Part shown: positions 4,387 to 27,652 of the stretch, one piece after another
How the letters are laid out: the number at the start of each line of letters is the position of its first letter
Position numbering within the stretch: position 1 is the stretch's first letter
Assembly (NCBI GenBank): GCA_963773065.1
Contig: CAVYZN010000011.1
Span: 96,001-160,000 of the forward strand
DNA: 64,000 bases
Reading direction: 5' to 3'
Source of the DNA: an uncultured Gammaproteobacteria bacterium
GTDB lineage: Bacteria > Pseudomonadota > Gammaproteobacteria > UBA9214
Translations under genes and position numbers: made by a program
The notes under the pieces: model-generated
Databases searched by the model: none
Seen by the model: only the letters and a program-made list of their open reading frames with translations
What the model was told of the DNA's origin: nothing

Positions 4387-5187
4387 CTAACCGTAGCGTC
4401 CCTCGATGTAGTCGGCGGTCTCCCGGTTGCGGGGCGTGACGAACATGGTTTCGGTGGCGACGTGCTCCACGACCTTGCCCATCAGCATGAAAATGCATTC
4501 CTCGCTGGCGCGGCGGGCCTGGGCCATGTTATGGGTCACGATGAGGATGGTGTATGTACCGCGCAGGTCCCAGATCAGTTCCTCGACGGCCTCGGTGCCT
4601 TTGGGATCGAGCGCGGAACAGGGCTCGTCCATCAGCAGCACGCCGGGTTTGACCGGCAGCAGGCGCGCGATGCAGAGTTTCTGCTGCGCCTCGAGGGAGA
4701 GATCGGTGGCCTTGATGTGCAGCCGGTCCTTGACTTCGTCCCACAACAGCACCTGCCTGAGCGCATCCTCGACGATTCCATCCTGCTCCGTGCGCGAGGC
4801 GCGTTTGCCCTGCGCATGCAGCCGGTAGCCGAACAGGACGTTCTCGCGTATGGAGACCGGCAGGGGATTGGGCCGCTGGAAGACCATGCCCACCTGCTTG
4901 CGCACCTGCACGAGCTCCACGGCGGGGCCGTAAACATTGTGGTCATGAACCCTGATCGTGCCCTCGATGCGCACGTAACCGAGTCGCTCGTTGATGCGGT
5001 TGATGCTGCGCAGCAACGTGGATTTGCCGCAGCCCGAGGGGCCGATGAGGGAGGTGATGAGGCCATTGCGGATATTCAGGTCCACGTCGAACAGGGCCTG
5101 GAACGTGCCATACCAGAGATTCAGCTTCTCCGTTTGGATGGCGTAGCGCACGTATTTGTCGTAGGCCGCCTGGCGGGTTGAATTCAT
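4387..5187 (-). CDS. pstB: Phosphate ABC transporter ATP-binding protein (copy 1)
   Basis: GPSGCGKS Walker A, MVFQRPNP, LLMDEPCSALDP, IVTHNMAQARR, C-terminal YIEGRYG. ABC signature is degenerate (LSLEAQQ). Confidence 0.93.
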   Translation of the reverse strand: MNSTRQAAYDKYVRYAIQTEKLNLWYGTFQALFDVDLNIRNGLITSLIGPSGCGKSTLLRSINRINERLGYVRIEGTIRVHDHNVYGPAVELVQVRKQVGMVFQRPNPLPVSIRENVLFGYRLHAQGKRASRTEQDGIVEDALRQVLLWDEVKDRLHIKATDLSLEAQQKLCIARLLPVKPGVLLMDEPCSALDPKGTEAVEELIWDLRGTYTILIVTHNMAQARRASEECIFMLMGKVVEHVATETMFVTPRNRETADYIEGRYG

Positions 5188-7845: not shown

Positions 7846-8931
7846 TCAGGGCGCCCCCTCGCCGCGCAGGGTTTCCATCAGATCGCGAATCCGGGCCCCC
7901 AGATCACGATAGATGTCTTCCAGCCATTTCTCGATTTCGCCGGCCTCGCCGCTCTCGGGCAGCGGGGCGATATCCCACTCGAGCGGCGTGGTGTGGAAGG
8001 GGACCTGTACAAAATAGGATCTTACCGGCCCCTGCAGGCTGACGATGATGTGCTGGATGGTGAGTTCCAGCGGAGTCATGTCGATGGGCTGGGGTTTGCC
8101 GGCGTCGATGCTGATGCCGTGTTTGTCCAGAAAGGCCGTCATGACCGGGTTCAGGGCGCGGACGGGCCGGCGTCCCGCGCTCGTGTAGTTGCCGCTGCCG
8201 GGAAAATACTTGTGCGCCATGGCCTGCGCCATCTGGCTCTGGCAACTGTTGTCCTCATCCACGAACAGGATGTTGTAGATCTTGGGCGCCTTCATCTCGC
8301 CGGTGGCCGCGAACACGGTTTCCTCGCAGATGTTCTTGGCCTGGTCCGCGACCCGTTTCAACTGGCTGAAGATCGCGAATACCGCCAGGATGTTCTTCAC
8401 GGCCTCGCGCTCGTCTTTGGCCATCAGTTCGGCGTAGACGATATCCAGGTCATTCTCCATTTGTTCTTCCATGATCATGGTGCTTCTGGCCATTTCCGCG
8501 TTGAGTTCGTTGAAGGCCCTGATGGACTGATGCAGCATGAGCTGTGTCTCGCCGCCCACGCGCTCCAGTTCATGCGCCATCGAACCCTCGGGCGGATCCG
8601 GCAGTTGCAGGGCTTCACGGGCGATGGTGACGGCGTAATCGCCGATGCGCTCCAGTTCGATATTGGCCCGGATGACCGAGGAGAGCAGCCGCAGATGGCC
8701 GGCGCTAGGCAGATGCAAGGCGATGAAGCCATGACACAGCTTGTCGATCTCGCGCATGGTCCGGTTGATCTGGTGATCGGCGAGTACGGTCGCGGCCGCG
8801 AGCGTGTTATCGCCGGTTTGCAGGGCGCGCATGGCGTTTTTGACAGCCGTTTCCACATGACCGGCCATGTCCGCCACGTGCTTGCGGATCCGTGTCAGGT
8901 CTCTTTCCAGGCGTTCTTCATAGTGGCTCAT
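7846..8931 (-). CDS. phoU: PhoU fused to a C-terminal ArsC/LMW-PTP-like domain with degenerate active site
   Basis: PhoU repeats (ELERIGDYA, LKRVADQAKNICE), then ILFVDEDNSCQSQMAQA...SAG..P...NP, versus the canonical ILFxCxxNSCRSQMAE. Confidence 0.88.
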   Translation of the reverse strand: MSHYEERLERDLTRIRKHVADMAGHVETAVKNAMRALQTGDNTLAAATVLADHQINRTMREIDKLCHGFIALHLPSAGHLRLLSSVIRANIELERIGDYAVTIAREALQLPDPPEGSMAHELERVGGETQLMLHQSIRAFNELNAEMARSTMIMEEQMENDLDIVYAELMAKDEREAVKNILAVFAIFSQLKRVADQAKNICEETVFAATGEMKAPKIYNILFVDEDNSCQSQMAQAMAHKYFPGSGNYTSAGRRPVRALNPVMTAFLDKHGISIDAGKPQPIDMTPLELTIQHIIVSLQGPVRSYFVQVPFHTTPLEWDIAPLPESGEAGEIEKWLEDIYRDLGARIRDLMETLRGEGAP

Positions 8932-9104
8932 GATCTGGCATCCCGCGGTTGCGTGCTGAATGGTGGATGTGGCTTGCGCCGCCCTGACGGAGCATTCCCG
9001 CTCTGCCGGGTCCCGGCACCGGCCGCGCTGTCGTTGCCAGCATGCACATGCTTTTCCAGCCGGAACGAATGTACCCTCTCGTTGCAATCATCCGGTGACG
9101 CTCC

Positions 9105-9199: not shown

Positions 9200-10075
9200 T
9201 TATTCACACGTGACGTTGCGTACCGGGGCATAACCCTTCTTGAGCAGTATGCACTGGCCGGCATCGCTCAGGATCCAGTCGAGGTATTTCTTGATCTCGC
9301 CCCGTGGTTCGCCGTTGGTGTACATGAACAGCGGCCGGGCGATGGGGTAGCTGTGATCGAGGGCGGTGGGGACGCTGGGTACGACACAGGGACCGCCGGT
9401 CTGCGCGGCGATGCAGACCTTCTTGACGTGCTCCGTGGCATAGGCCAAACCGCTGTAGCCGATGGCGCAGGCGGTCTTCTCCACCAGGTCCACGACTTCC
9501 TTGGAGCCGTGCATGTCCAGGGTGCCGGTGCGGTACTTGCCCTTCTCGCCGAGCACGGTTTCCTTGAAGTAGGCATAGGTGCCGGAGTTGTTCTGGCGGC
9601 TGGCCACGACGATCTTATCGCTGTCGCAGCCGGGCACCTTCACGCCCAGGTCAGACCACTTGGTGTACTTGGGATCGCGGCCGTAGATATTGCGCAACTG
9701 TTCGATGGACAGAGAGCTGATTGGGTTGCTGTTGCTGAGGAACACGGCCAGCGCATCGAAGCCGACCAGATGCTCGACCGGGTGCTGTCCGTTGGCCTCG
9801 GCTTCCTTGATTTCCTTGTCCTCCATCCGGCGGCTGGCGTTGGCGATATCCACCGTGCCGTTGATCATGGCCGCGATGCCGGTGCCGGAACCGCCGCCGG
9901 AGACGGCGACGGCCACCTCGGGGTTGACCTCGGGATAGGCCTCCGCCCAGGCCTGGGCGACGTTCACCAGGGTGTCGGAGCCCTTGTTCTGGATCAGGGT
10001 GCGCGCCTGGACGGTCAGGGCGGCAGTCAGGCCGGCCGCCAGTAACGATGTTGCAATAATCAAGTTCGCTTTCAT
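9200..10075 (-). CDS. pstS: Phosphate ABC transporter substrate-binding protein
   Basis: Signal peptide MKANLII..., KGSDT, GGGSGTGIAA, IANASR, SRQNNSGT, YPIARPLFMY. Confidence 0.95.
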   Translation of the reverse strand: MKANLIIATSLLAAGLTAALTVQARTLIQNKGSDTLVNVAQAWAEAYPEVNPEVAVAVSGGGSGTGIAAMINGTVDIANASRRMEDKEIKEAEANGQHPVEHLVGFDALAVFLSNSNPISSLSIEQLRNIYGRDPKYTKWSDLGVKVPGCDSDKIVVASRQNNSGTYAYFKETVLGEKGKYRTGTLDMHGSKEVVDLVEKTACAIGYSGLAYATEHVKKVCIAAQTGGPCVVPSVPTALDHSYPIARPLFMYTNGEPRGEIKKYLDWILSDAGQCILLKKGYAPVRNVTCE

Positions 10076-10362
10076 TGCGTTATTACCCCTCGCTCGATTG
10101 AGACTGAAAAACAGCTTGCGTGTGGCAAGCCGTGCATGGTTGTGGGTCCATTCTTCCGGTTGAACGCCGTCCGGTGGGTCCTGCGCGTCGCGTCGGAGCA
10201 TGGCTGAAGGCTGGCGGAGGATGGCATGGAAGGAGGAAACCGCAAAGGAAGGTTCTGAATTTTTGGGCGTATTATACCCATATTGAAGCGCCGCGACGCC
10301 AGCTACGTCGGGTTTGGTCAAATCGGGACGGGTTTCCGGCGCGCCGTGCGGCCTTGCGGGTG

Positions 10363-11129
10363 TCAGGACGGCGAACCGGCAGCGGCGGTGTGGAGTTGCC
10401 GTTTCACGTCGGCCCACAGGTTCTCGTAGCATTGCGCGGCCGGGCTCCTTCCCGCGAAACTCCCGAGCGGCGCGCGCATGATCCCCATGCGTTCCACCTC
10501 ACTGGTATAGGGAATGGCGGTCCCGAGGAGATTGGTCAGATAGTCGGGGGGATTGTCCACGATCGCGCGGTGCAGTTGTTTGCGCCGGTCGGCCATGGCG
10601 AAGAAAGGCAGCACCTTGAGGGATCGAGATCCTGCGCGGCGAGAAATTTCTTGATCTGTCTGAAGGTGCGCAGTGACAGCGGCGTCGGGATGGTCGGCAC
10701 CAGCACGGCATCCGCCGCGTAAAACACATTCTCGGACACCAGTGAAATGCTGGGCGGACAATCGAGGAAGACATAATCGTATTCGCCGGCCAGCGGTTCC
10801 AGCAGTTTGCGCAGCCGGTGGGTAGGTTTCTTCGCCTGTTCCAGGAAGAGGTCCATGTTGCGATAGGAAAAATCCGCCGGCAGGAGGTCGAGGTCCTCAT
10901 AATCGGTCCCCCGGATGCAGTCCTCCAGTTCGCTCTTGCCCGCGACCAGGCGCTTGCCGCCCCCCTTGATTCTGGGCTTGATGCGAAAGTAGAAACTCGC
11001 CGCCCCCTGGGGATCGAGGTCCCAGACCAGCGTCGGCGCGCCCTCGCGCGCGGCGAGGTAGGCCAGGTTGACGGCCGTGGCGGTTTTGCCGACACCGCCC
11101 TTGATGTTGTAGGTGGCCAGTACCTTCAT
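10363..11129 (-). CDS. ParA/Soj/MinD-family ATPase (one frameshift near 10620)
   Basis: Deviant Walker A KGGVGKT, DLDPQG, DCPP. The C-terminus (IPYTSEVERMG..RAPL..FA..SPAAQCY..LW) continues in the 10363..10761 frame. Start overlaps the CHAD stop. Confidence 0.85.
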
Positions 11130-12703
11130 GCCGCGGCATCCGCTTCGGCCGGGGTACATCCGGTAAACAGTCGCCGGTAATGCGCATGATTCCCGGGCGA
11201 GTCGAATTTCCCAAACCGGTCCGCGAATTCCGCGCGCGCCGCCTGCTGGCGGCGCTCCAACTCCTCGATCAGCATGCCCATGGCCAGCAGGGTATCCGGC
11301 GGGGCTTTGCCCTCGGCCGCCATCTGTTGACCGAAGTGTTTGAGGGTCGCGATCTGCACGGCGTAGTCCTGAAAATTGCCCAGGTTCTCCTGCAGCGCCT
11401 TGAGCGCGCCGATCGGCGACCTGATGCGCCGCGCCGGAAAAAGACTCTGGAAGAACTCCATCAGATAACGCAGTTTCTTGCAGGTCTTGCGCAGCTCATG
11501 GAGCGCCACCGCCGGCGTATCCGGCCCGATGGCCCGTCCCTCACTCAGGGTGCGCCGATAGAGGCGCCAGATGCGCTCGCAGGCAAGCGCCGACACGGGC
11601 CGGGTCGCGTTGGGCAGCCTTGAACGGTTCGGTACGGCCCGCAGGAGAAACTGCCGCCAGGTGTTGATCAGCCGGCGGTAGCGCACGCTGTCCAGCGCCT
11701 TCACCAAGGCATGGTGCTCGATGGCGCGTTGTCTGCCGATGAAATCCCGCAGGGGTTCGATATCCGCCTGGGCGGAAGCGGGCAGGCCGGCGCGATAAGT
11801 GTCGAAAGTCAGCAGGTAGACATCCAGGTCCCGCAGCGGGGTGGTTATCTGGCCGAGCCAGGCGAATTCGGTTTTATAACGGTTCACCGTGCGCAGCGGC
11901 AACACCCCCCGGATCTGGGTCAGGGCGGAGCGGGTGCGGCGTACGGCCACGCGGAAATCATGCAGGAACTCGGTATCCGTGCCGCCGCGGGTGCCGGCCT
12001 CGTTGGCTTCCATGATGTCAAGCAGCCGCAGCAGGATGACCCTGGCCGCCTGGTCGGCGCGCATGCCGCGCTCAAGGTGCAGGTCCAGTCTGGGCGTATA
12101 GCCGCCCGGTGTATGTCCGACCCTCGCCAGCGCCGTCAGCAGGGGATCGGCGTTTGCCGGCGCCAGTCCCAGATCTTCCAGCGCCTTCACGAGCTGCTTA
12201 CAGGGTTTTTGATAGCCCTTTACCGGCGCCACGACGGCGCGCCGGTCGAGCGCGTAAGACTTTCTTCCTTCCGGGCGGCGCGCCGAGTTTTCCTCGAAAA
12301 TCACGCGCGCCACGGTCTTCTCGTGCCGGTCCAGAACGCGCAGGGTGTGGACCCTGGAAATGATCATGACCAGCGGCGCCAGCTCGCGCATCTCCACGAG
12401 CGCTTCAAGATGCTCACGTAACCGGCCCGGCGGCAGGTCCCGGGCATAGCGTGGCGCCTTGTTCAGGATGGCCTGACCGCGCCGCTCGCCGCCATCCAGG
12501 TCGCGCCATACCAGCCGGTACCGTCCGCCGTCAGGAATACCCTCCAGCACGGCGTCGCTGGCATGAACCCGCCAGTCGAAGGTATCGAAGCAGGTTCGCT
12601 GCACTACGGCAGGCGGCTCCGGGACGAGTTGCAAGTCTGTCTGCAACGCGGACTGCACTGCCTCGGCATCCAGTTGGCTGGGAATAATGAACTCGAAACG
12701 CAT
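11126..12703 (-). CDS. CHAD domain (polyphosphate-binding) protein with CYTH-like N-terminal region
   Basis: DTEFLHDFRVAVRRTRS, RDLDV, LHELRKTCKKLRYLMEFF, LQENLGNFQD; N-terminal FDTFDWR. Confidence 0.9.
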   Translation of the reverse strand: MRFEFIIPSQLDAEAVQSALQTDLQLVPEPPAVVQRTCFDTFDWRVHASDAVLEGIPDGGRYRLVWRDLDGGERRGQAILNKAPRYARDLPPGRLREHLEALVEMRELAPLVMIISRVHTLRVLDRHEKTVARVIFEENSARRPEGRKSYALDRRAVVAPVKGYQKPCKQLVKALEDLGLAPANADPLLTALARVGHTPGGYTPRLDLHLERGMRADQAARVILLRLLDIMEANEAGTRGGTDTEFLHDFRVAVRRTRSALTQIRGVLPLRTVNRYKTEFAWLGQITTPLRDLDVYLLTFDTYRAGLPASAQADIEPLRDFIGRQRAIEHHALVKALDSVRYRRLINTWRQFLLRAVPNRSRLPNATRPVSALACERIWRLYRRTLSEGRAIGPDTPAVALHELRKTCKKLRYLMEFFQSLFPARRIRSPIGALKALQENLGNFQDYAVQIATLKHFGQQMAAEGKAPPDTLLAMGMLIEELERRQQAARAEFADRFGKFDSPGNHAHYRRLFTGCTPAEADAAA

Positions 12704-12892
12704 TATCGCATTATCGTCGTGTCCGGCCGCTTGGGCGGCGGCTCTGCCTGTTATGTACCTGCATGATGGCTAGCGCCAACGATTCACGAGTAGATGATGG
12801 ATTTGTTAGGTAGTGGGCAATTTTGTCACTATTATTGACGAATACGCAATGTCTGGCCGGGAACGCTGTCCGGCCGGGAAACGGGGGCTGTA

Positions 12893-14227
12893 ATGGACAT
12901 GACAGTATGGATTGAACTGATTCTGTTCGTCGTTCTATTGGTGTTTTCGGGTTTTTTTTCCAGTTCCGAGACCAGCCTGTTTTCGCTCAGCCGCACCCAG
13001 TTGGAACAGATGCGCCGTGATGGAAATCCCCACGTCAACCTGATCGAACGCCTGCTGAGCCAGCCACGGCGTCTGATCGTCACCATCCTGATCGGCAATG
13101 AATTCGTCAACGTGGCCGCCTCGGTGATATCGGCGGCGCTCGTCATCGAGCTGCTGGGAGCGGAGAACAAGCTGGTCAATCTTTTTATCATGGTGCCCAT
13201 ACTGCTGCTGGCGGGCGAGATCACGCCCAAGACGCTGGCCATCCGCAACAACGTCACGTTCGCCAGTTTTCTTTCACGGCCGATTGAATTGTTCGCCAAC
13301 CTGATCACACCGGTACGCCAGTCCGTGCGTTTCGTGGCGGACTGGGTGACCACGCTGATCGTCGGCAGGGAGCGTTCGCGCGCCAACATCGTCACCGAAG
13401 ACATGGTGCGCACCCTGGCGAAGGAGGCGGTTGGCGAGGGCGTACTCGACCCTCTGGAGGCGCAATACATCAATCATATCTTCGATTTTGGCAACAAGAG
13501 CGTCGCGCAGGTGATGACGCCGCGTTCCAATATCTTCTTTCTGCCCGCGGACATGACGCTTCCCGAGATGGTACGGCAGTTGCATCGCACGCGCCGCACC
13601 AAGATCCCCGTCTACAGCGGAAACCGGGACAATATCCTCGGGATACTCTACGCCCGGGATCTGCTCGGCCTGGACACGGCGGCAATTGCGGCGACTCCGG
13701 GCGGATTGCAGCGCGTGTTGCGCGCGCCCTATTACGTGCCGGAGTCCAAACTTGCCGCGGATTTGTTCCATCTGTTCCGCAAGCGCAGACTGTCGCTCGC
13801 GCTGACGGTGGATGAATACGGCGGGGTGACGGGTCTGGTCACCATGGAAGATCTGCTGGAATGCATCTTCGGTGACCTGCCCAGCGCCTCGGATGTGGCC
13901 GCCGGGATGGAATACCGGAAGTCTACGGACGGCAGCACCCGCATCGCCGGCAGCATGCGGGTGGAGCAGTTCAACCGCGAATTCGATGCCAATCTTTCCC
14001 AAGACGGGGCGGAAACCGTTGGCGAGCTGGTGCTGGAGCGATTGGGTGAATTGCCATCCGTCGGGGCCATGCTGGTCATGGAAGGTTTGAAGTTCAGTGT
14101 CGCAACCGTCAGGGACAACCGCATCCGGGAACTTTCCGTAAGCGCCATATCCGGCGCGGTGGAACCACGTTCCGGTCTTGAAAAACCCGGACCGGCTTCA
14201 TCCGTCGGGGGAAAAGACCGGGAATAA
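12893..14227 (+). CDS. CNNM/HlyC-CorC family transporter (DUF21 + CBS pair + CorC_HlyC)
   Basis: SGFFSSSETSLFSL, TILIGNEFVN, GEITPKT, VMTPR, VDEYGGVTGLVTMEDLLE. Confidence 0.92.
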   Translation: MDMTVWIELILFVVLLVFSGFFSSSETSLFSLSRTQLEQMRRDGNPHVNLIERLLSQPRRLIVTILIGNEFVNVAASVISAALVIELLGAENKLVNLFIMVPILLLAGEITPKTLAIRNNVTFASFLSRPIELFANLITPVRQSVRFVADWVTTLIVGRERSRANIVTEDMVRTLAKEAVGEGVLDPLEAQYINHIFDFGNKSVAQVMTPRSNIFFLPADMTLPEMVRQLHRTRRTKIPVYSGNRDNILGILYARDLLGLDTAAIAATPGGLQRVLRAPYYVPESKLAADLFHLFRKRRLSLALTVDEYGGVTGLVTMEDLLECIFGDLPSASDVAAGMEYRKSTDGSTRIAGSMRVEQFNREFDANLSQDGAETVGELVLERLGELPSVGAMLVMEGLKFSVATVRDNRIRELSVSAISGAVEPRSGLEKPGPASSVGGKDRE

Positions 14228-14230
14228 CTG

Positions 14231-15514
14231 ATGGGCGATATCCTAGTCACACTGGGGGTGATGATCGTCTGCCTGCTCCTGGAGGGTTTCTTCTCCGGTT
14301 CGGAGATCGGGGTCGTAAGCGCCGACCGCGTCAAGCTCCGGCATGATGCCGCCAAGGGTTCACGCGGCGCAAGACTCGCCCTGGCCATGCTCGACAGGCC
14401 CGAATGGCTGCTCTCGACGACCCTGGTGGGCACCAATATTTCGGTGGTGACCAATACCACTATGGTGACGGCGCTCATGATCGAACTGTTCGGGGAGACC
14501 GGCAGTTGGCTTGCCGTCGTGCTGGTGGTCCCGCTGATCTGGGTGTTCGGCGAGATCGTACCCAAAAGCGTCTTCCAGCAGCGCGCCGATCTTTACACGC
14601 CGCGCGTTATTTTTCTGCTGAAGTTCTTTTCCTGGCTGTTCTACCCGCTGCTCGCCGTATTCAGCGTCCTGACGCGATTCATTGCCAGGGTGATAGGCAA
14701 AAGCCCTGAAAACTATCCCTCCACACTGCGTGAGGAGATCGCCACGCTGCTGCAGATGTCCACGAGCGGCGGTGATATCAACCAGCATGAGAAGATCATG
14801 ATCCGCAGGCTGTTCGATTTCGAGGAAACGCCGGTACGTGATGTCATGATGCCATTGATCGATGTGATCGGGATCGAGCAGGGCGCCACCTGCTTTGAGG
14901 CGATGCGCCTGGCCAGGGAAAAAGCCCACAAGCGGCTGCCGGTCTACGAGCAGCGCGTCGACCGGATCGTGGGGGTAATCAACGCCCTGGAATTGCTGGA
15001 TGTCGATCCCGAGGCGCCTATCACTGCGTTCATCCGGCAAGCGGATTACATCCCGGCCTCCAAGAGCATCCAGGCGCTCTTGCAGGACATGCAGCGCGAC
15101 CATCATCAGATTGCGGTTGTCGTCGATGAATTCGGTGGCGCCGAAGGCATCGTAACGCTGGAAGATATCATCGAGGAGATTGTCGAGGATATCGCGGATG
15201 AGTTTGATGCGAAGGAGACCCCGACTCAATGGATGCGCCGGCTCGGCGAGCGTGACTATCTGGTCAGCGCCCGCATCGATCCGGGTTCCCTCACCGGTGA
15301 ACTGGGCATCGAGTTACCGCAAGGACAGTATGCGAGCCTGGCCGGATTTCTGCTCGAACGGGTGCACGATGTACCCAGGGTGGGCACCACCATACAGTAC
15401 AAGAAAGTGTCATTCACCATCCAGCGTGGTTCGACGCGCGTCATCGAGGAGGTCCGCGTCCGCTGCGTAATGATGGCAGCTCGCGAGCGCGACTATCTGG
15501 TCAGCGCCGCTTGA
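14231..15514 (+). CDS. Second CNNM/HlyC-CorC family transporter (3' end affected by a tandem duplication)
   Basis: EGFFSGSEIG, TTLVGTN, GEIVPKS, VVDEFGGAEGIVTLEDIIEE. The likely native end VRVRW* lies in the second repeat copy at about 15703. Confidence 0.9.
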   Translation: MGDILVTLGVMIVCLLLEGFFSGSEIGVVSADRVKLRHDAAKGSRGARLALAMLDRPEWLLSTTLVGTNISVVTNTTMVTALMIELFGETGSWLAVVLVVPLIWVFGEIVPKSVFQQRADLYTPRVIFLLKFFSWLFYPLLAVFSVLTRFIARVIGKSPENYPSTLREEIATLLQMSTSGGDINQHEKIMIRRLFDFEETPVRDVMMPLIDVIGIEQGATCFEAMRLAREKAHKRLPVYEQRVDRIVGVINALELLDVDPEAPITAFIRQADYIPASKSIQALLQDMQRDHHQIAVVVDEFGGAEGIVTLEDIIEEIVEDIADEFDAKETPTQWMRRLGERDYLVSARIDPGSLTGELGIELPQGQYASLAGFLLERVHDVPRVGTTIQYKKVSFTIQRGSTRVIEEVRVRCVMMAARERDYLVSAA

Positions 15515-17461: not shown

Positions 17462-17710
17462 ATGGCCACCCTTCACGTACGCAACGTCCCTGAAAAGCTC
17501 TACAAGCGCATCCAGAAACTCGCGGAAGAGGAAAACCGTTCGGTGACGGCTGAGGTCATACAGCTTTTGAGTCAGGGGCTGCAGGCGCGCGAGGCCCGCC
17601 GCAACGCCGCCGCCACCGTTGACCGCATCCGGGATCGGACGCAGAAAGTCGCGCTTCCCCGCGGATGGACGGATTCGGTCGATCTGATCCGCGAGGACCG
17701 CCGCCGGTGA
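17462..17710 (+). CDS. Ribbon-helix-helix antitoxin (FitA/Arc-like)
   Basis: MATLHVRNVPEKLYKRI...NRSVTAEVIQLL; C-terminal IREDRRR; overlaps the PIN gene start (GTGA). Confidence 0.85.
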   Translation: MATLHVRNVPEKLYKRIQKLAEEENRSVTAEVIQLLSQGLQAREARRNAAATVDRIRDRTQKVALPRGWTDSVDLIREDRRR

Positions 17711-18162
17711 ATCCGGCTCCGCTGCGGGCGGTGGTGGATGCCAGCGTCGCGGTGAAGATTTTCGTTCCCGAGGCATTGTCCGCCCAAGCGCAGACCGTCT
17801 TTATGCGGTTCGCTTCGGAAAACGGCGCCGAGCTGATCGTCCCCGATCTCTTCTTCATCGAGTGCGCGAATGTATTCTGGAAGTGGGTGCAGCGATCGGG
17901 CTATGCCGGCAAGGACGCCCGGGAACATTTGCGCGATCTGGCCATGCTTGGCCTGACGGCAATCCCGACCCAGGTTCTGGCGGATGAGGCATTGGGAATC
18001 GCTTTGACGCATAAAATTACGGCCTACGATGCGTGCTACCTCGCCGCGGCGACCCAAGTCAAGCTGCCTTTGATTACGGCGGACGAGAAGCTGGCAACAA
18101 AGCTCGCGACTGGTTCCTGTGAAGTGCGGTGGTTGGGCGACATCGAGGCCGTGTCGAAATAG
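17707..18162 (+). CDS. vapC: PIN-domain toxin, VapC family
   Basis: VVDASVAVK, E(CAN), ITAYDACYLA, LITADEKL acidic PIN residues. Confidence 0.88.
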   Translation: MNPAPLRAVVDASVAVKIFVPEALSAQAQTVFMRFASENGAELIVPDLFFIECANVFWKWVQRSGYAGKDAREHLRDLAMLGLTAIPTQVLADEALGIALTHKITAYDACYLAAATQVKLPLITADEKLATKLATGSCEVRWLGDIEAVSK

Positions 18163-18177
18163 CATCCAGGAGATCCC

Positions 18178-18538
18178 GTGGATCCCGTTTTCGTGGTGGC
18201 CGTGATAACCGTCGCGGCGATTATCATCTTCGATTACACCAACGGCTTTAACGATGCCTCCAGTATCGTGGCCACGGTGATCGCCTCGCGGGCCATGACG
18301 CCGGTTCAGGCCGTGATGCTCACGGCGCTGTTCGAATTCCTGGGGCCGCTGTTCGGCGGTACGGCGGTGGCCAATACCATCGGTAACTTCGTCGCCATCG
18401 GCGATCTGCCGGAATTGCCCGCGCTGATCATCATCCTGTGCGGCATCGCGGGCGCCATCGCCTGGAATATCCTCACCTGGTGGTTCGGTATCCCTTCCTC
18501 GTCATCCCATGCGCTCGTGGGCGGACTGGTCGGCGTGG
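18178..18538 (+). pseudogene. Truncated 5' copy of the Pit transporter gene
   Basis: Near-identical to 21224-21584 up to ggactggtcggcgtgg, then switches to unrelated sequence. Confidence 0.85.
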
Positions 18539-18965
18539 CCAGAACGTGTTGGCCAGCGGCTACTTCAAGACCTATGCACGCAGCGTGGGCTTCCCGAAGA
18601 CTCTCCTACACCCATCCATTGCTGATGAAGTTTGGCTTGACATTGTTCGCAGAGATATCGAAACAGCAGTTTTTAAGGCATTCAGGGCTGTCGAGATTGC
18701 TGTGCGTGAAGTTGGCAAATACTCTGACACCGATATAGGTACGCCGCTAATGCGCAAGGCTTTCGACAAGACCACTGGCCCACTTTCAGATCAGAAACAG
18801 CCTGAAGCAGAACGCGAGGCATTGGCGCACTTATTTGCTGGCGCAATCGGTTCCTACAAGAATCCTCACTCTCACCGTACCGTTACTATCAGTGATCCGA
18901 CGGAAGCCCAAGAGATGGTGATCTTGGCTAGTCATCTGCTTCGCATCGTTGATAGCAGACGATAA
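18539..18965 (+). pseudogene. TIGR02391-family protein, 5'-truncated cassette gene
   Basis: AVFKAFRAVEIAVR...GTPLMRKAF..GPL...EREALAHLFAGAIGSYKNPHSHR. Lower GC than flanks; followed by an attC-like site. Confidence 0.7.
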
Positions 18966-21223: not shown

Positions 21224-22264
21224 GTGGATCCCGTTTTCGTGGTGGCCGTGATAACCGTCGCGGTGATTATCATCTTCGATTACACCAACGGCTTTCACGA
21301 TGCCTCCAATATCGTGGCCACGATAATCGCCTCGCGGGCCATGACGCCGGTTCAGGCCGTGATCCTCACGGCGCTGTTCGAATTCCTGGGGCCGCTGCTC
21401 GGCGGTACGGCGGTGGCCAATACCATCGGTAACTTCGTCGCCATCGGCGATCTGCCGCAATTGCCCGCGCTGATCATCATCCTGTGCGGCATCGCGGGCG
21501 CCATCGCCTGGAATATCCTCACCTGGTGGTTCGGTATCCCTTCCTCGTCATCCCATGCGCTCGTGGGCGGACTGGTCGGCGTGGTGATGGCGGCCGCGGG
21601 ACACGACCACGTGGTCTGGGGAGTGCGTGAACTCGCCCAGGGGCATCTGACCGGTGTGACCAAGATCGTGCTCGCCCTGGTCATTTCTCCCGTCATCGGG
21701 TTCTGGTCGGGGTTTTTCATACACCGCTGGATGGGTTTTCTGCTGCGCGGGGCCCGTCCCTCGGTCAACAAATACCTGCGGCGGGTGCAGTTCCTTACCG
21801 CGGCGGGGCTGGCGTTTTCCCACGGCGCCAATGACGCCCAGAAGAGCATGGGCGTCATCACCCTGGTGCTGCTGCTCGGGGGCTACATCGGCGAGTTCCA
21901 TGTTCCCTTCTGGGTGGTGCTGGCCTGCGCCAGCGCGATGACCCTGGGCATCATGTCGGGCGGCTGGCGCATCGTGCGCACCGTGGGTTTCGGCATCTAC
22001 AAGGTGCGGCCGCTGCATGCCGTGGACGCCCAGATCACGGCGGCATCGGTCATCTTCGGTTCCGCCCTGCTGGGCGCACCGGTTTCCACCACCCACGTGG
22101 TGAGCTCGTCCATCATGGGCATCGGCGCATCGGAACGGCCGAAGGCGGTGCGCTGGGCCAAGGCCAGGGAGATCGTCAGCACCTGGATCATCACCCTACC
22201 CGGCGCTGCCCTGGTGTCCGTGCTGGTTTTTTATTCGGTTCGCTTGGTGACCGGCCTGATATGA
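21224..22264 (+). CDS. pit: Inorganic phosphate transporter, PiT family
   Basis: NGFHDASN, GIPSSSSHALVGG, HGANDAQK, PVSTTH signature motifs. Confidence 0.93.
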   Translation: MDPVFVVAVITVAVIIIFDYTNGFHDASNIVATIIASRAMTPVQAVILTALFEFLGPLLGGTAVANTIGNFVAIGDLPQLPALIIILCGIAGAIAWNILTWWFGIPSSSSHALVGGLVGVVMAAAGHDHVVWGVRELAQGHLTGVTKIVLALVISPVIGFWSGFFIHRWMGFLLRGARPSVNKYLRRVQFLTAAGLAFSHGANDAQKSMGVITLVLLLGGYIGEFHVPFWVVLACASAMTLGIMSGGWRIVRTVGFGIYKVRPLHAVDAQITAASVIFGSALLGAPVSTTHVVSSSIMGIGASERPKAVRWAKAREIVSTWIITLPGAALVSVLVFYSVRLVTGLI

Positions 22265-22333: not shown

Positions 22334-23033
22334 ATGAGCGGTAAAGGCACTTCCCGGATTGCCCGGCTGGTCGACCGGGTGTTCCCGCGCATGCCCGATT
22401 TCTATTCCCTGATCGACGATCAGTGCAATCTCACCGTGGAAACAATGGTGGAGTTCGTGAAATACATGGAGACCGGGGACCCGGCATGCGCTGACAAGGT
22501 GCGTGAACTCGAAAAGCGGGGTGATCTCCTCAAGGCCCGCAATAACGAGATTCTCGACAAGGCCTTTGCCACGCCCATGGATCGTGAAGACATCTTCCGG
22601 GCCATCGTCAGCATCGACCAGATCATCAACTACGCCAAGACCAGCGTGCGCGAGATGGAAGTTCTTGAGCTACGGCCGGACAAATACATGCTGCAGATGG
22701 CGATGCTGCTGCAGGAAGGCGCGATCGCCCTGCAGCAGGGTTTCCGGAAGCTTTCCATCAATCCCGCCGCCGCCGAGGCGCACGCCCAGGCCGCGCGCAA
22801 GGCCGAGCGCCGTATCGAGAAAGTCTACCGAAGCGCGATCGGCGAGTTGTTCAATCTCGAGCGGATAGCCGGGCCGCTGGCGAGCCCGGCGGATGACGCC
22901 ATCGAAGGCGGCGATGGTGAATATCATCGAGATATTCAAACACCGGGAAATCTACCGGCATCTCTCCAATGGCGGCGACCGGCTGGCGCATGCCGGCGAT
23001 AACCTGCACGACATCGTGGTCAAGATTGCCTGA
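22334..23033 (+). CDS. DUF47 (PhoU-like) Pit accessory protein (frameshift near 22905)
   Basis: ELEKRGD, FATPMDREDI. The C-terminus REIYRHLSN.GD......L.DIVVKIA* is in a shifted frame. Directly downstream of pit. Confidence 0.85.
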
Positions 23034-23083: not shown

Positions 23084-25369
23084 TCAAGCGCCTTTCTGCA
23101 GGCGCTTGTGAAAATGATACAGCAGTTTCTGGCGCAGTTTCGCCTGCTGGTGCTTGGAAGCCGCGGACATGCGTTTTTGCGCCAGCTCGATGAAGGTTTC
23201 CTGGGAACTGCGCGATGCCTTGCCGGTTGTTTCCTGGCGCTCGATATAACTCCCGTCCGCCTGCATCTCCCAGACATTGCGGCGGCTCGATAACTGAACA
23301 TCGAGTATCAGACGCAACTCCTGGCGCAGCTTCGGGTCCTCGACCGGCGCGACGACCTCCACGCGGCTTTCGAGATTGCGCAGCATCAGGTCCGCGGAGC
23401 CGATGAAGTACTCCTCGGCCCCGCCGTTCCTGAAATAATAGATCCGCGCATGCTCCAGAAATCTTCCCACCACGCTGATGACCTGGACAGTTTCCGTGAG
23501 GCCCGGAATGCACGGGCGCAAGCGGCAGGTATCGCGCACGATGAGGTCTATCTTGACGCCGGATTGGGCCGCGCGATACAGCGCGCGGGTGATGTCCACA
23601 TCCTCCAGGGCATTTATCTTGAGCTGGATGAGCCCGGGGGACTCGCTCGTATGAAGCTTGATCTCGCGGTCGATCTTGTCCAGCAGCGCCTTTTTCAGGG
23701 TATAGGGTGAGGTCAGGATCTTGCGGTAGCGCGGCGGCGGGGAATACCCGGTCAGGTAGTTGAACAGCTCGGTCAGGTCCTGGGTGATCCCGGCGTCGGC
23801 GGTCAGCATGCCAAGATCGCAGTACAGGCGGGCGGTTCCCGCGTGATAATTGCCGGTTCCGATGTGGGCGTAGCGGCGCAGGCCGTTATAGTCCTTGCGC
23901 ACGACGAGTATGACCTTGCTGTGGGTCTTGAGGCCGACCACGCCATAGGTGACGTGAATGCCGGCCTGTTCCATGCGCCGCGCCCAGCGGATATTGGCGG
24001 CCTCGTCGAAGCGGGCCTTGAGCTCAACCAGCACCGCGACCTGCTTGCCGTTACGCGCCGCCTTGATGAGCGATTCGACGGTATTGCTTTCCGAAGACGT
24101 GCGATACAGCGTCATCTTTATCGCCAGCACCTTGGGATCCTCGCTCGCCGTGCGCAGGAAACGCTCGACGCTGGTGCTGAACGACTCGTAGGGGTGCTGC
24201 AGCAGCATCGCGCCGCGTTCCCGTATAATATGGAAGATGTTGCGGGTATCGTGCGCCAGGCGGTTATGGTCGACCGGCTTGTGGGGCGGGTCGTGCAATT
24301 CGGGAATATCCAGGCCGGCGATCTCGAACAGGTCGCGCATGCCCATCATCGCCTCGGCTTCGAATACATCGGCTTCTTCGTTCAGGCCGAGTTCCGCGGC
24401 CAGCATGCCACGGTTGGTCGGGTTCATGCCCTTGTCGACCTGCAGGCGGACGATGGGTGCAAAATGGCGATCACGCAACTCGGTCTCGATCATCGCCAGC
24501 AGGTCATCCGCTTCCTCTTCCTCTATCTCGACGATGGCATTGCGCGTCACCTTGAAGAGCTCGCAGGATATGATCTGCATGCCCGGGAACAGCAGGTCGA
24601 GGTTGTTGGCGATCAAATCATCGAGCCTGACGAAGGTGTTGCTGCTGCCGACGGCCACGAAGCGCGGCGCGATATCCTTGACCATCGGCACCTTGACGCG
24701 GGCGTAGTGACTGCCGCTGCTGCCGGGATAACACAGTGTCACAAGCAGGTTCAACGCCAGGTTCGAGATAAACGGAAAGGGATGGCCCGGGTCCATGGCA
24801 AGCGGCGTCAGCAGCGGGAAGATGTTGGCGATGAACTTCTCCCGCAGTTCTTCCCGTTCGGCGTCGGACAGTTGCGTGTACGTGACGAGGCGGATGCCCT
24901 TCGCATCAAGCAGTTCGAGCAACTGATGAAAGATCTGGTTCTGCTCGCGGTGCAGCTCCCTCACCATCACCTGGCTTAAGCGCATCTGTTCCATGGGTGT
25001 GCGGCCATCGACGGTCGGCGCGCTGATGCCGGCGGCGATCTGCTGCTTCAGTCCGCCGATGCGCTTCATGAAAAATTCATCCAGATTGCTGCTGACGATG
25101 GCCAGGAACTTGACGCGCTCGAGCAGGGGTGTCTGCGCATCGGCGGCCATGTGCAGCACACGGCGGTTGAATTCCAGCCAAGTCAGTTCCCGATTGAGAT
25201 ATAGCTCGGGAGCATTGATGTCAATGACGGCAGGCTTCGGAACATCCGTCGCGGTTGCGGCACGAACGCCTGTTGTTTGTGTGGATCCCGGGGTCTTCCT
25301 GCGTGGCGCGGCGCGGCCGGCTGCCCGCGCCGGGGCCGTATCCTGGGTAGTTGCCGGGGTCTTATCCAT
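23084..25369 (-). CDS. ppk1: Polyphosphate kinase 1
   Basis: YLNRELTWLEFNRRVL, SNLDEFFM, HPFPFISN, HPYESF, ELKARFDE, LKTHSK, GTGNY, GRFLEH, GSADLM.RNL. Confidence 0.97.
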   Translation of the reverse strand: MDKTPATTQDTAPARAAGRAAPRRKTPGSTQTTGVRAATATDVPKPAVIDINAPELYLNRELTWLEFNRRVLHMAADAQTPLLERVKFLAIVSSNLDEFFMKRIGGLKQQIAAGISAPTVDGRTPMEQMRLSQVMVRELHREQNQIFHQLLELLDAKGIRLVTYTQLSDAEREELREKFIANIFPLLTPLAMDPGHPFPFISNLALNLLVTLCYPGSSGSHYARVKVPMVKDIAPRFVAVGSSNTFVRLDDLIANNLDLLFPGMQIISCELFKVTRNAIVEIEEEEADDLLAMIETELRDRHFAPIVRLQVDKGMNPTNRGMLAAELGLNEEADVFEAEAMMGMRDLFEIAGLDIPELHDPPHKPVDHNRLAHDTRNIFHIIRERGAMLLQHPYESFSTSVERFLRTASEDPKVLAIKMTLYRTSSESNTVESLIKAARNGKQVAVLVELKARFDEAANIRWARRMEQAGIHVTYGVVGLKTHSKVILVVRKDYNGLRRYAHIGTGNYHAGTARLYCDLGMLTADAGITQDLTELFNYLTGYSPPPRYRKILTSPYTLKKALLDKIDREIKLHTSESPGLIQLKINALEDVDITRALYRAAQSGVKIDLIVRDTCRLRPCIPGLTETVQVISVVGRFLEHARIYYFRNGGAEEYFIGSADLMLRNLESRVEVVAPVEDPKLRQELRLILDVQLSSRRNVWEMQADGSYIERQETTGKASRSSQETFIELAQKRMSAASKHQQAKLRQKLLYHFHKRLQKGA

Positions 25370-25629: not shown

Positions 25630-26697
25630 TTACATCGTGGTCAACGGTATTGACAGGCCCGAGGTGGACAAGAACGTCCTGGCGAGAAACTCTTCCCGCG
25701 GGAATCTGGCCAGGGTAACGACGCGCGGCAGTAGTTCACCAATGCTGACCTCGGTCAGATTGAGGGTGTTGCAGGGTTGTGTTGCCGCCGCATCGATTTT
25801 GATGCCCATCTTGTTCAGCCTGAGCGTTGACTCCTGCAGCCGGACGAACTTTTCCGGATTGCTGAACACCTCCACCACCTGCTCGAGGCTGACCTGCGGC
25901 GTTGCCAGATGGATTTTCCTCAAATCCTCCTCGGTCTTTTCGAGTTTGAGCTTTAGTTCTTCAATTTCACGTTTGCCGTCAATCTCGGATGTCGGCCGCT
26001 CGATCTGCTTGTCCAGCATATACTGGGCATGCCGCAGTCTTGCCTGCAGCATTTGACGTTCGTTTTGCAGACGCTGGTTCGACAGTCTGAGTTGTACGAC
26101 ACGCTCCAAGGTGTTGGTGACCAGACCTTCAAACAGGCATTGTTTCAGCCCTTGCCGCGTTTCCGCTTCGGTCGATGCCGGTGAATAGATCCGGTGATCC
26201 GAGAAGTTCACCGCGATCTGCTTCACGTCCTTTTTCAGGATATCGCCGTCAAGCTCTACGCCCAGAACGGTTTTTTCCGTCTTGCGCATACAAAGCAGGG
26301 CGCAGCATTGTGTGATTTCCCCCTGCGCGATATCTTCCATGAACTCCCGTATTTCCGAACTCTGGGAGAAAATCGTCTGCACATCCCGGGTGTTTGAAAA
26401 GAAAGCATTGACGTAGGGATCGGAGACAAACGTTCTGCTGCTGACTTCTATCGCCCCGGGGAAGCGATCGATCAGGGCGTCGGTGAAGTCGAGGGAATTT
26501 CTTATGACATGCTGAAGTTTCTTCCTGTAACCGCTGACCAGACGTATTCTGCCGTCGATGCCGTCGATGACCCTTTCCACAGTCATCGCAATATCGGGAT
26601 ACTGATCCTGCCGGGGGTCTTTGTCGTGTTGTTTGTATTGCAGGACGTTACGCAGACCGGATAGTTTCATATCGGGGAATAGCTTCATACTGTTCAT
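25630..26697 (-). CDS. Hypothetical protein with coiled-coil segment
   Basis: 355-aa ORF preceded by a gaggag RBS; no recognisable motif. Confidence 0.7.
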   Translation of the reverse strand: MNSMKLFPDMKLSGLRNVLQYKQHDKDPRQDQYPDIAMTVERVIDGIDGRIRLVSGYRKKLQHVIRNSLDFTDALIDRFPGAIEVSSRTFVSDPYVNAFFSNTRDVQTIFSQSSEIREFMEDIAQGEITQCCALLCMRKTEKTVLGVELDGDILKKDVKQIAVNFSDHRIYSPASTEAETRQGLKQCLFEGLVTNTLERVVQLRLSNQRLQNERQMLQARLRHAQYMLDKQIERPTSEIDGKREIEELKLKLEKTEEDLRKIHLATPQVSLEQVVEVFSNPEKFVRLQESTLRLNKMGIKIDAAATQPCNTLNLTEVSIGELLPRVVTLARFPREEFLARTFLSTSGLSIPLTTM

Positions 26698-27169: not shown

Positions 27170-27652
27170 ATGGCGGTAGAAATAGAACGGAAGTATCTGG
27201 TCAGGAATGACGGCTGGCGCACATCGCGCACCGGGATCCGTTACCGGCAGGGATATCTGTCAACGCAACCCGGCCGCAGCGTCCGGGTGCGGGTGGGCGC
27301 GGGCAGGGGGTTTCTCACCATCAAGGGACTGATCGTTAACGCGACACGCTCCGAGTACGAGTATCCCATCCCGGTAGATGATGCCAACGAGCTGCTGAAC
27401 ACCCTCTGTCTGCGGCCGATCATCGAAAAAACCCGCTACACCATCGCACATGAAGGACTGCTCTGGGAGATCGATGAGTTCGAGGGGGTGAACGCCGGGC
27501 TGATTATCGCCGAAGTGGAACTTGCCGAGCCGGATCAGCAAATCAGGCTGCCGGACTGGGTCGGGAAGGAGGTTACCGATGACCCGCGTTATTACAATGC
27601 CTGCCTGATCGCAAATCCGTTTACAAAATGGAGCAATCGCTCATCGGGCTAG
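27170..27652 (+). CDS. CYTH domain protein (triphosphate tunnel metalloenzyme)
   Basis: EIERKYLV, QGYL, VRVR, LTIKG, R.EYEY.I, IEKTR, WEIDEF, AEVEL, EVT.DPRYYN. Confidence 0.92.
   Translation: MAVEIERKYLVRNDGWRTSRTGIRYRQGYLSTQPGRSVRVRVGAGRGFLTIKGLIVNATRSEYEYPIPVDDANELLNTLCLRPIIEKTRYTIAHEGLLWEIDEFEGVNAGLIIAEVELAEPDQQIRLPDWVGKEVTDDPRYYNACLIANPFTKWSNRSSG

Follow-up and report, generated by a model that had tools for sequence, protein, structure and literature searches.

In most bacterial species the proteins that place or partition polyphosphate (polyP) granules are unidentified, according to papers of 2025 and 2026 (PMC13052382, PMC13081873; papers given by PMC number are cited here and below for the parts of their text that were available). 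The positioning mechanism is described as undefined in Escherichia coli and Caulobacter and as ParA-independent in Synechococcus elongatus (PMC13081873/PMC13556221, 2026), and the 2025 review, as far as its available text goes, knows of no energy-using component for polyP and leaves the use of energy for localisation as something that "remains to be seen" (PMC13052382). The gene arrangements closest to the one treated here are the folD-ppk-parA-CYTH/CHAD cluster of Acidithiobacillus, where a CHAD gene is likewise located by parA and ppk but the ParA is called a partition protein and given no polyP role in the available text (PMC6416229, 2019; PMC10892726, 2024), and the ppk-pptA-nudix operon of Streptomyces, where a CHAD gene under PhoP control lies just upstream of pstSCAB, much as at the pst genes here, but no ParA is described (PMC8003754). 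The CHAD domain of the Chlorobium tepidum protein CtCHAD binds polyP with KD values of 1.9 uM and 147 nM and has been crystallized in complex with polyP, the construct comprising residues 207-522 of a longer protein (PMC6537752). The stretch of DNA analysed here, called the window, is 64,000 nucleotides (nt) from an uncultured gammaproteobacterium of the lineage UBA9214 (assembly GCA_963773065.1, contig CAVYZN010000011.1, positions 96,001 to 160,000), and at 10363-12703 it contains a CHAD gene followed by a gene for an orphan ParA-type ATPase. By comparison of sequences this pair is one copy of a widespread two-gene module in which translation of the ATPase gene is coupled to that of the CHAD gene, and the best available interpretation is that the module would organise polyP granules.

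Both open reading frames (ORFs) are located on the minus strand. The first, 11126..12703, encodes a two-domain protein of 525 aa with a TTM (triphosphate-tunnel)/CYTH-like domain followed by a long CHAD domain, and its stop codon TGA (11128-11126) shares bases with the start codon ATG (11129-11127) of the ParA-type ORF at 10363-11129. The shared ATGA at 11126..11129, which reads tcat on the plus strand, had been pointed out in the earlier note and is present as given there; since the two genes abut in this way in 71 of the 78 loci elsewhere that could be assessed, the overlap exceeds chance. The ParA region has a length of 767 nt, which is no multiple of three, and therefore cannot be a single frame. 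The earlier note had overlooked a 1-nt deletion near 10624 that breaks the frame: ParA codons 1-168, with the deviant Walker A, Walker A' and Walker B motifs, are found in one frame (10626..11129), and the last 86 codons with the stop in another (10363..10623), the latter showing 85-92% identity to the C-terminal parts of the intact congener orthologues.

Of 40 relatives, 17 have an orthologue of the ATPase that is 57-95% identical to the N-terminal part of the window ParA, namely 4/4 members of the genus, 11/20 from the rest of the family and 2/16 from other families. The congener G004 is 95% identical over this part, and the next-best ParA matches in the relatives are ordinary paralogues with at most 45% identity. 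In all 17 a CHAD homologue ends at the ParA start or at most 17 nt from it, nine having the 4-nt overlap. It is these 17 relatives that have the CHAD orthologue, and 22 of the 40 have neither of the two; one further genome (G013) has a CHAD orthologue on a contig that ends 87 nt past the CHAD match, and is not assessable for ParA. Judged from this distribution the two genes are gained and lost together.

For a wider scan one genome per species was used with the ParA alignment as query, and the best 80 loci, 55-74% identical, come from Gammaproteobacteria (Sedimenticola, Thiodiazotropha, Methylococcales, Nitrosomonas, Nitrotoga), Alphaproteobacteria (Thalassobaculum), Trichloromonas, Actinomycetota and Acidobacteriota. 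Two are cut by a contig edge, which leaves 78 assessable loci from at least four phyla, and in 71 of these the next gene upstream, on the same strand, encodes a CHAD protein (69 called by Pfam, or 70 of the 72 scanned with the window included, and two more by a local hidden Markov model). The genes overlap by 4 nt in 41 of these loci, by 1 nt in 11 and by 29 nt in two, and they are separated by 2-20 nt in 13 and by 37-235 nt in four, so that 52 of the 71 have a 4-nt or 1-nt overlap. Five of the seven loci without an adjacent CHAD gene were checked, and each of the five genomes keeps exactly one CHAD gene of 511-535 aa elsewhere. In an even sample of the class a single ParA orthologue at E <=1e-60 was found in 38 of 300 other genomes; in 37 of these carriers (G170 was left out) CHAD is upstream in 31, as a TTM+CHAD protein in 26 and as a CHAD-only protein of about 300-345 aa in five, while ppk1 is upstream in one and nothing recognisable in five. 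At locus L117 (G254:C3) the ParA orthologue follows ppk1 directly, without an intervening CHAD gene. Cultured carriers of the module include Sedimenticola selenatireducens, Nitrosomonas marina and Thalassobaculum litoreum.

The CHAD part of the first gene product is recognized by Pfam at residues 223-454 with 205.1 bits against a cut-off of 25.6 (E 2e-60), and with phmmer residues 204-517 match CtCHAD (PDB 3e0s and 6qv7, E about 1e-47), the closest solved relative. The long-type domain (residues 206-517) is encoded by 11153..12088 on the minus strand, and H248, R251, R291, H402, R405, K409 and R412 are invariant in 69 sequences. The protein has no NCBIfam family match. The earlier note takes it as known that CHAD domains bind polyP and localise to granules, and this is in keeping with the CHAD match and the close similarity to a protein with measured binding, the binding and localisation themselves being properties of homologues.

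Residues 1-215 show no match to Pfam or to PDB sequences, and AlphaFold2 predicts a barrel fold for them with a pLDDT of 93.8. In Foldseek the TTM domain of E. coli YgiF ranks first among the structural matches (5a60, E 2.5e-7, TMq 0.59), and further matches are to thiamine triphosphatase (ThTPase), CYTH cyclases and VTC, over a range of E 2.5e-7 to 5e-4 and TMq 0.4-0.6. A profile of the domain also aligns with the CYTH part of ParA-CYTH fusions with a probability of 83.9% and E 7.8e-6 (hhalign). None of 72 CHAD-partner sequences matches Pfam CYTH (PF01928) at E <=0.01. ExExK, which we take to be the N-terminal catalytic signature of CYTH/TTM proteins, was not found in 69 sequences, where positions 3-7 are variable with no conserved acidic or lysine column and the first strand is unconserved. 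There is thus moderate support for a tunnel-type beta-barrel that is a remote and degenerate TTM/CYTH homologue (residues 1-205, 12089..12703 on the minus strand), and this domain carries the predicted ParA-binding face described below. The family contains 3838, 2618 and 1280 cluster representatives at E <=1e-3, <=1e-10 and <=1e-30 respectively, and the top 150 representatives are mostly 505-560 aa long with the domain in N-terminal position. Single representatives have an extra domain ahead of the TTM-like and CHAD domains, namely a canonical CYTH (P0130), a DNA-binding HHH_5 (P0187) or a His_Phos_1 phosphatase (P0261).

The N-terminal part of the window ParA matches Pfam AAA_31 with 125.9 bits against a cut-off of 27 (E 2.2e-36) and CbiA with 46.2 against 25.4 (E 5.3e-12), and its deviant Walker A, KGGVGKT, keeps the signature lysine of ParA/MinD proteins. 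K10, K15, D37, D39 and D123 are invariant in 124/124 aligned orthologues, and K10 and K15 also in 120 long relatives. Among solved chains, ParA and Soj proteins come nearest (8ray with E 1.6e-22, 6iub and 2bek), and the identity to the Soj of the same genome is about 35-38%. All 15 listed NCBIfam families are below cut-off, the best score being 77.9 bits against the 180 required for ParA_partition. The only ParB_N match of the genome is on another contig (C31), beside Soj and away from the pair; no ParB family is found among the 25 most frequent flanking families shown for the wider loci, and a motif that we take to represent parS has no match in the window at <=3 mismatches. The earlier assignment to an orphan ATPase of ParA/MinD type, with no parB or parS in sight, thus agrees with intact motifs, with catalytic residues that are invariant in the relatives, and with the lack of an adjacent ParB.

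For the complex model the CHAD protein of the window, with an alignment of 69 sequences, was combined with the intact ParA of the congener G004, with an alignment of 89, which makes a cross-species pair from the same genus. The scores were 0.67, 0.67 and 0.65, whereas three controls all gave 0.00; the mark is reached by 58 of 80 solved complexes and by 2 of 110 mismatched pairs, counts that hold only roughly because author-supplied alignments were used. The runs share at least 92% of their contacts and the partner has a pLDDT of at least 86. The predicted interface is wholly in the TTM-like domain (residues 77, 122, 127-130 and 161-164) and involves ParA residues 30, 48-51, 72-76, 81 and 219. 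Complex prediction of the pair, as the earlier note had advised, thus separates it from its best control, and the proposal that the CHAD protein serves as adaptor for the ATPase is strengthened in silico, with the correction that the contact is predicted on the TTM-like domain and not on CHAD. On the partner side K129 is conserved in 69/69 sequences, G163 in 68/69, R/K162 in 66/69, Y164 in 64/69 and D/E127 in 61/69, and in the model the predicted contacts coincide with the most conserved residues of the N-terminal domain.

The ParA side varies with the type of partner. In 106 ParAs with an assessable partner that bears the TTM-like domain, F48 is found in 96, R49 in 105, K/R73 in 104, D76 in 102 and R219 in 106. 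The five ParAs with a CHAD-only partner have L48 throughout, D/E/E/T/D at position 51, Q/V/D/A/P at 76 and Q/R/R/Q/Q at 219, and 15/15 fusions of ParA with SBP_bac_3 have L48, E/D51 and L73. In the five genomes with an unlinked TTM-CHAD gene the contact signature is kept, and the catalytic residues are invariant across all partner groups. In these alignments the residues at the ParA contact positions go with the presence or absence of a TTM/CYTH domain in the partner. On a FastTree tree about three changes account for the CHAD-only state, and the contrast is therefore not a single event.

Natural fusions were found among longer proteins matching ParA at E <=1e-40, of which there are 289; the best 120 were examined, and Pfam CYTH is present in 22, Pfam CHAD in 22, SBP_bac_3 in 15 and a HAD/sucrose-6-phosphate-phosphatase-like (S6PP) domain in 10. 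ParA is N-terminal in 22/22 of the CYTH fusions and R49, D76 and R219 are kept in all of them, with CYTH above the Pfam cut-off in 5/5 checked. This order is opposite to that of the gene pair, and the CYTH fusions therefore do not come from read-through of CHAD-ParA. In the CHAD fusions ParA is C-terminal in 21/22. Other fused forms are ParA-TTM-CHAD (P0084) and TTM-ParA (P0002), beside the proteins with CYTH or HHH_5 ahead of TTM-like and CHAD (P0130, P0187). The fusions to SBP_bac_3 and HAD/S6PP have the partner at the C-terminus and a ParA of 46-54% identity (P0026-P0051, P0054-P0083), and one HAD cluster has 28 members. As far as sequences go, this suggests that the ATPase clade has also been recruited to other partners. 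The complex model, the covariation of residues and the fusions all point to physical association, and on the evidence as a whole it is almost certain that the ATPase and the TTM-like+CHAD protein act together and very probable that they touch through the TTM-like domain.

By analogy, the module may be an ATP-driven organiser of polyP granules that works like McdAB, and we consider this slightly more likely than not. The CHAD domain would coat the polyP granule or anchor on it, and the TTM-like domain would offer its conserved face (K129 and R/K162-G163-Y164) to the ATPase (F48-R49, K73-D76 and R219). The ATP-bound ParA dimer would bind a cellular matrix, most likely the nucleoid, and hydrolysis stimulated by the partner would space, separate or partition the granules. 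From analogous systems we infer all the steps past binding: that this copy binds polyP, that the ATPase binds DNA and is stimulated, and that granules are affected. The chances are about even that the module is the first ATP-driven positioning system for polyP granules, in which a degenerate triphosphate-tunnel domain would have been turned into an adaptor that docks and activates ParA and been joined to a CHAD polyP anchor, in thousands of protein clusters from several phyla. A bolder form of this reading would have the ATPase take polyP itself as its polyanionic matrix.

A number of observations weigh against the granule organiser. The polyP granules of S. elongatus are regularly spaced without any ParA system (PMC13081873), and loss of CHAD proteins is without apparent phenotype in Ralstonia or E. 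coli (PMC6537752). The linkage to phosphate genes is not conserved, ppk1 being found within 4 kb in 5/80 of the wider loci and pstS in 5/80. The survey of CHAD-ParA adjacency and ppk1 linkage that had been suggested has thus come out well for the adjacency and badly for ppk1, and the cluster with ppk1, pit and CYTH in which the pair had been placed is real in the window but does not extend to other lineages as a conserved linkage. pstS follows the pair in at least 12 of the 17 relatives, and the phosphate island is by this comparison a feature of the local family and not of the module. No conserved third gene was found on either side in a Pfam survey of 65 upstream and 78 downstream flanking ORFs; upstream of CHAD there are nine M1 peptidases, four His_Phos_1 and three Ppk1, and downstream of ParA there is no pattern, ABC_tran being most frequent with seven and PPK2 occurring twice. 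The ATPase clade is not exclusive to CHAD, with none within reach in 7/78 loci and in 5/37 carriers of the class sample, and some of its relatives are fused to SBP_bac_3 or HAD/S6PP as described. The model is of a 1:1 complex, whereas the active form of ParA ATPases is an ATP dimer, and the covariation is partly phylogenetic. Five partners (G039, L118, L120, L121 and L124) are without the TTM-like domain, and the same interface is therefore impossible there. The CHAD-ParA fusions follow the gene order, and some may therefore be artefacts of read-through or frameshift, and many of the fusion proteins are single metagenome sequences. The window ParA is itself frameshifted as assembled.

The module might instead act on polyP chemistry, with the ATPase as an ATP-dependent switch on a TTM/CYTH-type enzyme or on granule nucleation, size or turnover, which we hold to be unlikely. 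The N-terminal domain does have the TTM fold, which is also that of triphosphatases, cyclases and polyP polymerases, canonical Pfam-positive CYTH domains are fused to ParA in 22 of the best 120 long relatives, and enzymes of polyP or phosphate metabolism (ppk1, PPK2, His_Phos_1, H+-PPase) sometimes adjoin. The Acidithiobacillus CYTH-CHAD protein has been read as a polyP-regulated class IV adenylate cyclase (PMC6416229), and the polyPase activity of YgiF is enhanced by CHAD (PMC6537752). Against this, the domain here has no ExExK, its first strand is unconserved in the 69 sequences and 72/72 fail Pfam CYTH; this loss of the catalytic signature makes an enzymatic role less probable. The best-conserved surface residues are moreover the predicted ParA contacts and not a recognisable catalytic set, and P0130 has a canonical CYTH besides its TTM-like domain, suggesting that the two have different roles. 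To our knowledge the ParA/MinD ATPases that carry the signature lysine are positioning switches and not enzyme regulators. That the ATPase places the granules, or the CHAD protein, elsewhere than on the nucleoid is a more doubtful proposal still; the matrix could be the pole, the membrane, or polyP itself as a polyanion bound by ParA-ATP. Some bacteria have polar polyP granules (PMC13052382), polyP resembles DNA in being a polyanion, either polyanion could be bound by the conserved basic run R182-R183-K184, and nucleoid binding of the ATPase is argued from analogy. On the other hand, no C-terminal amphipathic extension past the last ParA helix was seen by eye in 89 aligned orthologues, and P0187, a single sequence, fuses the DNA-binding HHH_5 to TTM-CHAD and points to DNA. 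CHAD binds polyP but not nucleic acids (PMC6537752), and a separate DNA-binding part is therefore needed, for which ParA is the obvious candidate. That an ordinary partition ParA is located beside a CHAD gene by chance is scarcely credible, and the comparative data already contradict it: annotation sources do label the relatives as 'chromosome partitioning protein' or 'BcsQ', and ParA counts as a partition protein in both papers in which the cluster is drawn (PMC6416229, PMC10892726), but the adjacency in 71/78 and 31/37 loci across phyla with overlapping stop and start, the score of 77.9 against the ParA_partition cut-off of 180, the lack of parB or parS by the pair, the existence of fusions and a complex model that passes its controls all speak for a dedicated pair.

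It could also be that the module is dead in this organism, the 1-nt deletion being a true mutation and ParA a pseudogene, which we think not very likely, though less improbable than an enzymatic role. One intact ParA/MinD frame is not found in the window. In alignment the window is one base short compared with the four congeners, at GATCTCG-ATCC (10622..10625 on the minus strand), and ParA is intact (248-258 aa) in 16/16 complete relatives, the four congeners included. The deletion is present in the assembly at a site that is not a homopolymer, and the pair has been lost repeatedly within the family, 9/24 genomes of which are without the ParA orthologue. Contigs crossing 10622-10624 were taken from four public metagenome runs, compared over 10300-11300; their best share of the sampled words of the window is 0.46, and none is shown to be the source sample. 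All five crossing contigs have one extra base, and one of them differs from the window at 5/259 positions (98% identical over 259 nt). Both halves of ParA are still 85-95% identical in protein sequence to the congeners, with no additional stop, insertion or deletion, and the CHAD gene upstream is intact. The source genome is a metagenome-assembled genome (MAG) of 33 contigs with 90.9% completeness and 6.3% contamination, and the deletion lies inside GGATCGAGATCC, beside two GATC motifs. Such a context is probably prone to long-read basecalling errors. Because of the quality of the MAG, the two flanking GATC motifs and the extra base in the crossing contigs, a consensus error or a mutation private to this MAG is favoured over a real pseudogene, and is also more likely than a trait of the family.

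Downstream of the pair, 287 nt separate ParA from pstS (9200..10075, minus strand, Pfam PBP_like_2 with E 3.7e-39), which is followed on the same strand in the order pstS-phoU/LMWP-pstC-pstA-pstB-pstB. Comparison with the congeners gave no conserved small ORF in this gap, such as a ParG- or McdB-like third gene. A TCAATAnGGnTATAAT block at 10271..10286 (minus strand) has a core that is identical in 4/4 aligned congeners and is a likely promoter of pstS, and the CHAD-ParA pair therefore reads as a separate two-gene unit. A consensus scan of 9900-13000 found no promoter, and a terminator scan of the same region found one terminator-like hairpin against 2.5 expected. This hairpin with a T-run is located at 10111-10133 (minus strand), 36 nt before the pstS start codon and inside the presumed pstS leader; one congener shares it with the window, and two others have lost it by deletion. 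The E. coli-type Pho box, which we take to be CTGTCAT-N4-CTGTCAT, has six matches at <=3 mismatches against 4.1 expected, with none near the pair or pstS, and no claim of Pho control is therefore made. On the other side of the pair, the window and four congeners share a conserved block at 12818-12840 (minus strand), some 115-135 nt ahead of the CHAD start, which is kept even in a congener with a different upstream gene, and a -10-like TACATAAC/TATATAGC is found at 12750-12757 (minus strand), about 47-54 nt upstream of the CHAD start.

Between pstS and pstC, 7846-9087 (minus strand) encodes PhoU (TIGR02135, E 2e-44) fused to a low-molecular-weight phosphatase (LMWP)/ArsC-like domain, which is both an unusual position and an unusual fusion for phoU; the fused gene recurs, with 73% identity, in loci L023 and L099. 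The pst operon ends with two tandem genes for pstB-like ABC ATPases (4387-5187 and 5234-about 6000, minus strand). Upstream of the CHAD gene and divergent from it are two tandem CNNM/CBS/CorC genes of the Mg/Co efflux type (12893-15514, plus strand), and a CNNM/CorC homologue of 26-30% identity is also found upstream in L022, L023 and L099. Within 16 kb of the pair are a truncated pit (18178-18615), a pit (21224-22264), a PhoU_div gene (22334-23002), ppk1 (23084..25369, minus strand, with four PP_kinase Pfam domains) and a stand-alone CYTH gene (27179-27595). The GC content is lower over 16-22 kb of the window, and at 17665-18738 (plus strand) a PIN-domain gene is directly followed by the truncated second Pit copy, which comprises residues 1-141 only and is 81% identical to the full Pit. 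This copy was considered as a second frameshift and thus a sign of an error-ridden assembly, but tblastn shows residues 1-141 without continuation in another frame; it is a real truncation and therefore uninformative on assembly quality. Between ppk1 and the stand-alone CYTH gene, an ORF of 355 aa (25630-26697, minus strand) matches no Pfam family.

The module makes the placement of polyP directly testable, as it is a two-gene unit with a predicted interface (K129/Y164 against R49/D76) and cultured carriers. If the granule-organiser interpretation is true, the ParA/MinD family would gain both a cargo and an adaptor type that are new to it, and a function could be assigned to the widespread TTM-like+CHAD 'phosins', whose deletion has so far given blank phenotypes; there may also be a bearing on phosphorus-accumulating bacteria in wastewater treatment. 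No paper was found that assigns this ParA a role with polyP, in a search to which subscription journals and supplements were external. The earlier opinion that no system of this kind had been characterised thus agrees with the literature on the role of the ParA, but needs amending for the genes, since the cluster has already been drawn for Acidithiobacillus. New for ParA/MinD cargo positioning would be the cargo and the adaptor type; the Acidithiobacillus cluster is already in print.

Among the known systems the carboxysome-positioning pair McdA/McdB, whose features are taken from PMC13081873 and from general knowledge, is the closest in design. It too has an orphan gene for a ParA-type ATPase beside the gene for a cargo-binding adaptor, with no ParB/parS, and here the coupling of ATPase and adaptor genes is seen in 17/17, 71/78 and 31/37 loci with CHAD upstream, and the binding of adaptor to ATPase in silico. 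In the mechanism proposed here the likeness would extend further, to an adaptor that sits on the cargo and stimulates the ATPase, and to a membraneless or proteinaceous cargo spaced along the nucleoid. Unlike McdB, the adaptor is a TTM-like+CHAD protein without a Pfam or NCBIfam link to it, the cargo would be a granule of inorganic polymer, the ATPase keeps the signature lysine in KGGVGKT, and the system is known from its genes alone. With ParABS the module has the ATPase superfamily and its motifs in common, but the window ATPase is below the ParA_partition cut-off and has neither a ParB gene beside it nor parS in the window. The tethers AlgP of Pseudomonas aeruginosa and PhaM/PhaF link polyP or PHB (polyhydroxybutyrate) granules with the nucleoid and determine how they are spaced (PMC9239181, PMC13052382), but these are passive DNA binders without an ATPase and unrelated in sequence. 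E. coli YgiF has the same order of CYTH/TTM and CHAD and gives the best structural match of the N-terminal domain, but the CHAD here is of the long, CtCHAD-like type, the N-terminal domain fails Pfam CYTH and is without ExExK, and no ParA partner is described for YgiF in the available text (PMC6537752). C. tepidum CtCHAD is the closest solved CHAD relative and of the same overall length class, and it is the one for which polyP binding has been measured.

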